In this document: one piece after another, positions 18,873 through 19,330 of the stretch
Layout of the letters: each line of letters opens with the position of its first letter
How positions within the stretch are numbered: the first letter of the stretch is position 1
From: Escherichia coli
GTDB lineage: Bacteria > Pseudomonadota > Gammaproteobacteria > Enterobacterales > Enterobacteriaceae
Direction: 5' to 3' (one strand)
NCBI RefSeq assembly: GCF_003790525.1
Contig: NZ_CP033635.1
DNA: 64,000 bases
Program-made: the position numbers and the translations under genes
Notes under the pieces: generated by a model
Databases searched by the model: none
Told to the model about the DNA's origin: nothing
Seen by the model: only the letters and a program-made list of their open reading frames with translations

Positions 18873-18958
18873 TAGACTGGCCCCCTGAATCTCCTGCGTT
18901 TGAAGGACAGTAACAGGTTAAGTGATAACAGATGTATGAAAATATAGAGATACATCCA
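18873..18958. mobile_element. Miniature IS2-like remnant (left-end and right-end-like sequences only, ~86 bp)
   Basis: TAGACTGGCCCCCTGAATCTCC (IS2 left-end sequence) is followed within 60 bp by GTTAAGTGATAACAGATGT...ATATAG..CATCCA resembling a diverged IS2 right end. Confidence 0.5.
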
Positions 18959-19099
18959 AGGAAGAGCCACTTTTGCGCCGTTCGTGACAGTTTTGTCATG
19001 TCCTTGCTCCGGCCTGGTTTTATGTTCATAAGTCCTTCTTCACCAGTATCTTTGTAAACCTTCACCCAGTGCCAGATAATGGTTTCATTTGATATATTA

Positions 19100-19330
19100 A
19101 ACTGTGTAGTGGCCTAGCGCATGGTAAGTTCTTCACTCAAACCTTCAGGACAACTGTCAGTCGAAACTCAGGAGATCCGCGGTCATTTTGCCATGTAATA
19201 CCATCAATACCGTGGAGTTGCCAGCCCTTGACCCAGCATCGCTCTGATGTTTCTTCAACACCAAAACGTTCAGCGGTACGACGTGTACCATCGTGTCCGG
19301 CAATATAATGATTAACTACAGCTTATTCGG
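19100..19330 (-). pseudogene. IS3-family OrfA-like transposase fragment (degenerate)
   Basis: Reverse-strand translation gives ...TRRTAERFGVEETSERCWVKGWQLHGIDGITWQNDRGSPEF... (HTH-like) interrupted by stops. Confidence 0.4.

Follow-up and report, generated by a model that had tools for sequence, protein, structure and literature searches.

The window, a 64-kb stretch of Escherichia coli DNA, contains a ROK-family regulator and an AbgT-family transporter separated by a gap in which remnants of several insertion sequences (ISs) lie end to end (Table 1). Over 18300-19790 it is 99.8% identical to E. coli strain AR_0085, and 28 of the 5,426 complete E. coli genomes carry almost the entire locus, chickens being the majority of listed hosts; this restricted carriage bears out the original prediction that the DNA was acquired horizontally. 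At the identical locus, RefSeq annotates the regulator, a YebF-family pseudogene, the transporter and a downstream S6-family peptidase, and carries no annotation across the 86-bp IS2-group feature (hereafter the mini element) and the neighboring IS scraps. The peptidase is a serine-protease autotransporter (SPATE) whose closest solved structure is hemoglobin protease Hbp/Tsh (1263 bits); it has 1274 residues in the window and 1291 in AR_0085, the two genes differing by 51 bp in length near 24447-24588.

Table 1 Features in and around the gap between the ROK-family regulator and the AbgT-family transporter, in window coordinates.
Feature	Position	Strand	GC	Remarks
Whole window	64 kb		0.482	
sodC-to-ROK module	11590-18293		0.555	
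ROK-family regulator	17181-18293			RefSeq annotation, identical locus
Whole gap	18294-19791		0.378	
YebF-family pseudogene	18442-18741	+	0.49	Internal stop; RefSeq annotation, identical locus
Spacer	18742-18850		0.32	
Left flank common to all three contexts, ~21 bp	18851-18872			Continues into yebF-like spacer (contexts A, C) or IS1-family pseudogene (context B)
Mini IS2-group element, 86 bp	18873-18958	+	0.41	Left inverted repeat 1-22 fused to last ~64 bp of a diverged IS2-group element
Solo ISL3-family terminal inverted repeat, outer 30 bp	18960-18989	+		ISL3 terminus at 18989
IS150-like IS3-family element, 5' 419 bp	18990-19408	-	0.43	Truncated inside orfA exactly at ISL3 terminus
AbgT leader	19409-19791	+	0.24	Not insertion-sequence derived
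AbgT-family transporter	19792-21351		0.389	RefSeq annotation, identical locus; TIGR00819, 1.7e-227
S6-family peptidase	21663 onward			RefSeq annotation, identical locus
SPATE gene	21663-25487		0.498	

The first 22 nucleotides of the mini element (18873-18894, TAGACTGGCCCCCTGAATCTCC) agree at 22 of 22 positions with the outer segment of the left inverted repeat (IRL) of IS2; IRL positions 23-42 are missing. Across 18910-18958, 41 of 49 positions (83.7%) agree with the right-terminal 49 bp of K-12 IS2. The 15 nucleotides between them (18895-18909) align, from CTGCG on, with the IS2-group sequence that immediately precedes the right end; being colinear with it, they indicate that IRL 1-22 is fused directly to the last ~64 bp of the element. 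When we searched the window for the two end motifs, allowing up to three mismatches, each was found at two sites, the mini element and a full-length IS2 variant at 9100-10430, and the same tolerance gave no match in 100 shuffles. The right end is homologous to that of IS2 (IS3 family, IS2 group) through a conserved GGTTAAGTGATAACAGATGT block and the C-terminal OrfB codons LSDNRC..I-stop, which are kept while the sequence diverges in a codon-like manner, several of the changes being synonymous. Unlike IS2, the mini element has no orfA, no orfB, no left-repeat positions 23-42 and no 5-bp duplication; its transposase content is limited to the last ~14 codons of OrfB, with no orfA/orfB arrangement and programmed frameshift. 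Over the right 64 bp, identity to IS2 is only 75% for the window copy and reaches 81% in the best-matching copy, so the parent was not IS2 itself but a diverged relative. The predicted unit of about 86 bp, an IS2 left terminus followed by a diverged right end, was thus recovered at both ends, and its description as an internally deleted IS2 derivative holds at the level of the IS2 group.

The right end expected of a full-length parent reads ...GAAGGACAGTAACAGGTTAAGTG, and a 188-bp right-end relic of similar lineage in strain PapRG-04-4 has the GTAACAGG signature in common with the mini element. No full-length parent was found among the complete E. coli genomes, and two scans of species-representative genomes for exact matches to the relic's right end were likewise empty, although a diverged parent could escape exact matching. 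Plasmids in PLSDB contained IS2-type right ends only and never the whole mini element.

Between the mini element and the adjoining OrfA fragment lies a 30-bp scrap of an ISL3-family terminal repeat that was absent from the original prediction. It matches the right end of an ISL3 relic at locus L010 at 29 of 30 positions and the 39-bp repeats of an ISL3 pseudo-element elsewhere in the window (34897-36312) at 24 of 30, and ISL3 relics with an end matching the scrap occur in approximately 2,900 E. coli genomes. The scrap resembles ISL3-family elements in carrying the outer 30 bp of a 39-bp terminal repeat and differs from them in being a solo end with no transposase or partner repeat attached. 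The 31-bp right flank of the mini element had been considered as IS3-family orfB, given a weak resemblance to sequence adjoining an IS2 copy in plasmid CP058064.1, and this assignment was dropped in view of the 29/30 match to ISL3 repeats. The pseudo-element at 34897-36312 itself has 39-bp terminal inverted repeats and a frameshifted transposase (open reading frame against NCBIfam ISL3, 2e-55); its flanking 8 bp differ between the two sides, so that it has no target duplication.

The fragment that begins at the ISL3 terminus we take to belong to the IS150 group, on the basis of the OrfA architecture of IS150. Its left repeat TGGACTCTCCCTCCAAAAGTTGGACA is intact and TG-initiated, with its outer end at 19408, and OrfA, starting at 19358, is interrupted by stops at codons 9, 12 and later and by a frameshift. 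In the TG-initiated repeat and in an OrfA with two helix-turn-helix motifs it resembles IS150-group elements, but unlike complete members it comprises the first 419 bp only, the remainder being cut off at the ISL3 terminus. Its DNA is 85-88% identical over 405-425 bp to longer copies at two other loci (L004 and L005); such copies are annotated as IS3-family pseudogenes. The protein matches of the fragment are weak (HTH_28 twice, 5e-4; NCBIfam IS3, 22.7 bits, below cut-off), whereas OrfB of L005 matches NCBIfam IS3 at 1.7e-61. That the fragment end meets the ISL3 end precisely is as expected if an ISL3 element had formerly inserted into the fragment. The decayed IS3-family OrfA fragment predicted here is therefore real, and it extends to 19408, 78 bp farther than had been proposed.

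The gap had also been described as strongly AT-rich, which is only partly right: its overall GC content is 0.378, that of the debris itself is 0.41-0.45, and strong AT-richness is confined to the AbgT leader. The IS scraps mark the seam between the GC-rich sodC-to-ROK module and the GC-poor AbgT/SPATE module, and the rarity of the locus and the IS scars are stronger evidence for the horizontal origin of the region than composition is.

The deletion junction of the mini element occurs in approximately 100 of the 5,426 complete E. coli genomes and in six metagenome contigs, every copy having the same junction. Only three contexts were found; the six contigs, retrieved by scanning 241 million metagenome records with the junction pattern, each belong to one of them. 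In context A, the type present in the window (28 complete genomes), the mini element is preceded by the yebF pseudogene, a 110-bp spacer and 21 bp, and followed by the 30-bp ISL3 end, the IS150-like fragment and AbgT. In context B (L002, SMS-3-5 type; ~48 complete genomes), which lies beside sitD, a 640-bp IS1-family pseudogene and the 21 bp precede it, and the 30-bp ISL3 end and then DNA downstream of sitD follow. Context C (L013, strain F11 type; 24 complete genomes) has a yebF-like gene, the spacer and the 21 bp on the left and unrelated DNA, then cytochrome b562, on the right; the left end of its mini element is degraded. The YebF pseudogene and its spacer form the left-hand module that bears the mini element in contexts A and C. 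At L013 6267-6440, in the F11-type island, the 90%-identical YebF homeologue is annotated as a short intact open reading frame, and its counterpart in context A is a pseudogene.

Contexts A and C have ~585 bp of left flank in common at 90.6% identity (89.6% when the alignment spans window positions 18288-18947), and A and B share 21 bp preceding the mini element and 31 bp following it; context A has the left flank of C together with the right flank of B. We considered the 21-bp left flank as a remnant of an IS1-family insA: in context B the NCBIfam IS1 alignment reaches three codons into it, contiguous with the IS1 pseudogene. IS1 is only a candidate source of the flank, as the yebF-like spacer that continues it in A and C showed no IS1 similarity beyond chance (score 24, shuffle mean 22.3).

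No 5-bp target-site duplication is present in contexts A, B or C (the window flanks are GCGGT and AGGAA); for comparison, the W3110 IS2 copy (L003) is bounded by AGGGT at either end. Each island has a single copy, and AR_0085 has a single site matching the mini element; the two contexts held by some genomes, such as A and C in GF4, reflect the carriage of two islands. The mini elements of A and C are 80.5% identical, compared with 90.6% for their flanks, so that copies diverge as much as their flanks or more. Few contexts, flanks in common, no duplication and divergence at least equal to that of the flanks argue for inheritance with island segments and not for transposition. A three-way alignment examined by eye revealed no recombination breakpoint inside the mini element; A grouped with B over its full length. 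The breakpoints that separate the contexts coincide exactly with IS termini, namely the ISL3 end at 18989 and, in context C, the IS2-group right end; that 18989 is a transposon terminus explains why the similarity between A and B ends at precisely this position. Together with the missing duplications, these breakpoints point to several transposase-mediated rearrangements in the history of the locus.

We consider the 86-bp element to be a non-functional IS2-group fossil that arose by one internal deletion and was then carried passively in island pieces, a reading to which we assign a probability of about 0.88. A single deletion would have removed ~1.25 kb, taking out the two transposase frames together with 20 inner bp of the left repeat, so that position 22 of this repeat adjoins sequence beginning ~64 bp before the right end, with GAATCTCC/TGCG at the junction. 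An imperfect short direct repeat, GAATCTC within the left repeat and GAATATC immediately ahead of CTGCG in IS2-group right ends, makes a microhomology-mediated deletion the likely, sequence-based explanation of this step. After the deletion, the relic would have been passed on passively with pieces of genomic islands. We conclude that the deletion arose once and is old enough for its copies to have diverged by about 10-20%.

Whether the relic could move depends on its termini. The IS2 terminal repeats are each described as a cleavage domain and a protein-binding domain, with the right end acting as donor in the first transposition step (PMC3299598). Of the 42 bp of the left repeat, 22 persist in the mini element; the left cleavage domain is intact, and most of the protein-binding domain is lost. 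The right repeat (IRR, 41 bp) is full length; the window copy matches IS2 at 35 of 41 positions, and four of its six substitutions (positions 6, 8, 9 and 11) lie in the 11-bp cleavage domain, whereas the context-B copy matches at 39 of 41 with substitutions at positions 8 and 11 only. A full IS2 variant lies 8.4 kb from the mini element in the window. Judged from these ends, mobilization of the mini element in trans would be unlikely.

The original prediction had called the element MITE-like, that is, a non-autonomous 86-bp unit mobilized in trans by an IS2-group transposase and spread as a unit. Like bacterial MITEs, it is small and non-coding, with both ends derived from the termini of an autonomous insertion sequence; it is also present in more than one place, a full IS2 variant is at hand in the window, and the complete-length right repeat (2 of 41 differences in context B) and intact left cleavage domain would favor mobility. 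Unlike MITEs, however, it shows neither amplification nor independent insertion sites, it has no target duplication, and its left terminal repeat, cut to 22 of 42 bp, lacks most of the protein-binding domain (PMC3299598). Searching the genome for further copies, as had been proposed, did yield other copies, but in three contexts only across 5,426 genomes and 241 million metagenome records, with one site in AR_0085; every pair of contexts has flanks in common beyond the IS2 ends, and divergence inside the element is not below that of the flanks. The MITE-like reading is largely refuted by these results, and we regard it as very improbable.

A hybrid origin, in which the left 22 bp and the right 64 bp came from two IS2-group copies and were joined by recombination or IS-mediated deletion, would account for the contrast between a left part identical to IS2 and a right part only 75% identical, and would suit the absence of a target duplication in surroundings that are a patchwork of IS-mediated rearrangements. 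IS2 variants with an overall difference of 4-5% nevertheless have a conserved left terminus, which gives a 22/22 match little weight; both parts stand in native order and orientation, and the degraded left end in context C fits uniform decay of a single relic. We consider such a hybrid unlikely. That the resemblance to IS2 arose by chance, or that the sequence is a promoter or small RNA serving neighboring genes, has nothing in its favor beyond the lack of a RefSeq annotation for the mini element and is negligibly probable: the expectation from the 100 shuffles was zero, a scan of 18200-19900 revealed no promoter-like or terminator-like site inside 18873-18958 and no Rfam match with an E-value below 0.46, and the AbgT start is 830 bp away with a dead IS fragment in between.

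Under the single-deletion reading, the mini element is most likely inert and offers only short homology for recombination. There is a slim chance that the relic is not fully inert and, given its intact left cleavage domain, its full-length right repeat and an apparently live IS2 variant nearby, may serve as a target for an IS2-group transposase or as an 86-bp recombination point that reshuffles island modules; the latter would be in keeping with context A joining the left flank of C to the right flank of B. The mini element and adjacent scraps are ordinary IS debris at a module junction. The seam nests IS2-group, ISL3 and IS150-like scars, and possibly also IS1, within ~560 bp on a rare island of mostly chicken-associated strains, an island that encodes the AbgT transporter together with a protease autotransporter of the Hbp/Tsh-like type. 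These scars document a diverged lineage of the IS2 group of which no intact copy was found in the genomes scanned, and, although unannotated in RefSeq, they can be used as markers of the assembly and exchange of island modules among mostly poultry-associated E. coli.

Several other elements in the window bear on its architecture. The AbgT and protease module (19409-25560) is bracketed exactly by the termini of two different IS150-like elements whose bodies point away from it, with the left repeat at 19408 and an ISKpn37-like repeat (TGTACTGACTCCAAAAAGTTGGACAG) at 25561-25586. This layout resembles a composite transposon; the two bracketing elements have no DNA similarity beyond the repeat, and for that reason the right-hand IS3-type fragment was rejected as the missing 3' half of 18990-19408. 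An IS256-family element (25591 to ~26904; 402-residue open reading frame at 25625-26833) is inserted in the ISKpn37-like fragment with an 8-bp duplication, ACAGTTGT, and since it is absent from AR_0085, the insertion is probably recent. A block running from carbamate kinase to LysR, located upstream of sodC in AR_0085, is downstream in the window (36490-46898, compared with 10430-25590), and IS66, IS256 and ISL3 elements fill the region between the two blocks. The full-length IS2 variant at 9100-10430, on the minus strand, is 95.9% identical to K-12 IS2 (OrfB against NCBIfam IS2 TnpB, 2.7e-209); the flanking CGATG and CTCCC do not amount to a target duplication, and colinearity with AR_0085 breaks at 10430, which suggests an IS2-associated rearrangement. 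An isolated 20-bp scrap at 45877-45896 reproduces the IS2 right terminus exactly (GAAATATAGGGGCAAATCCA) and is not accompanied by any further IS2 sequence.
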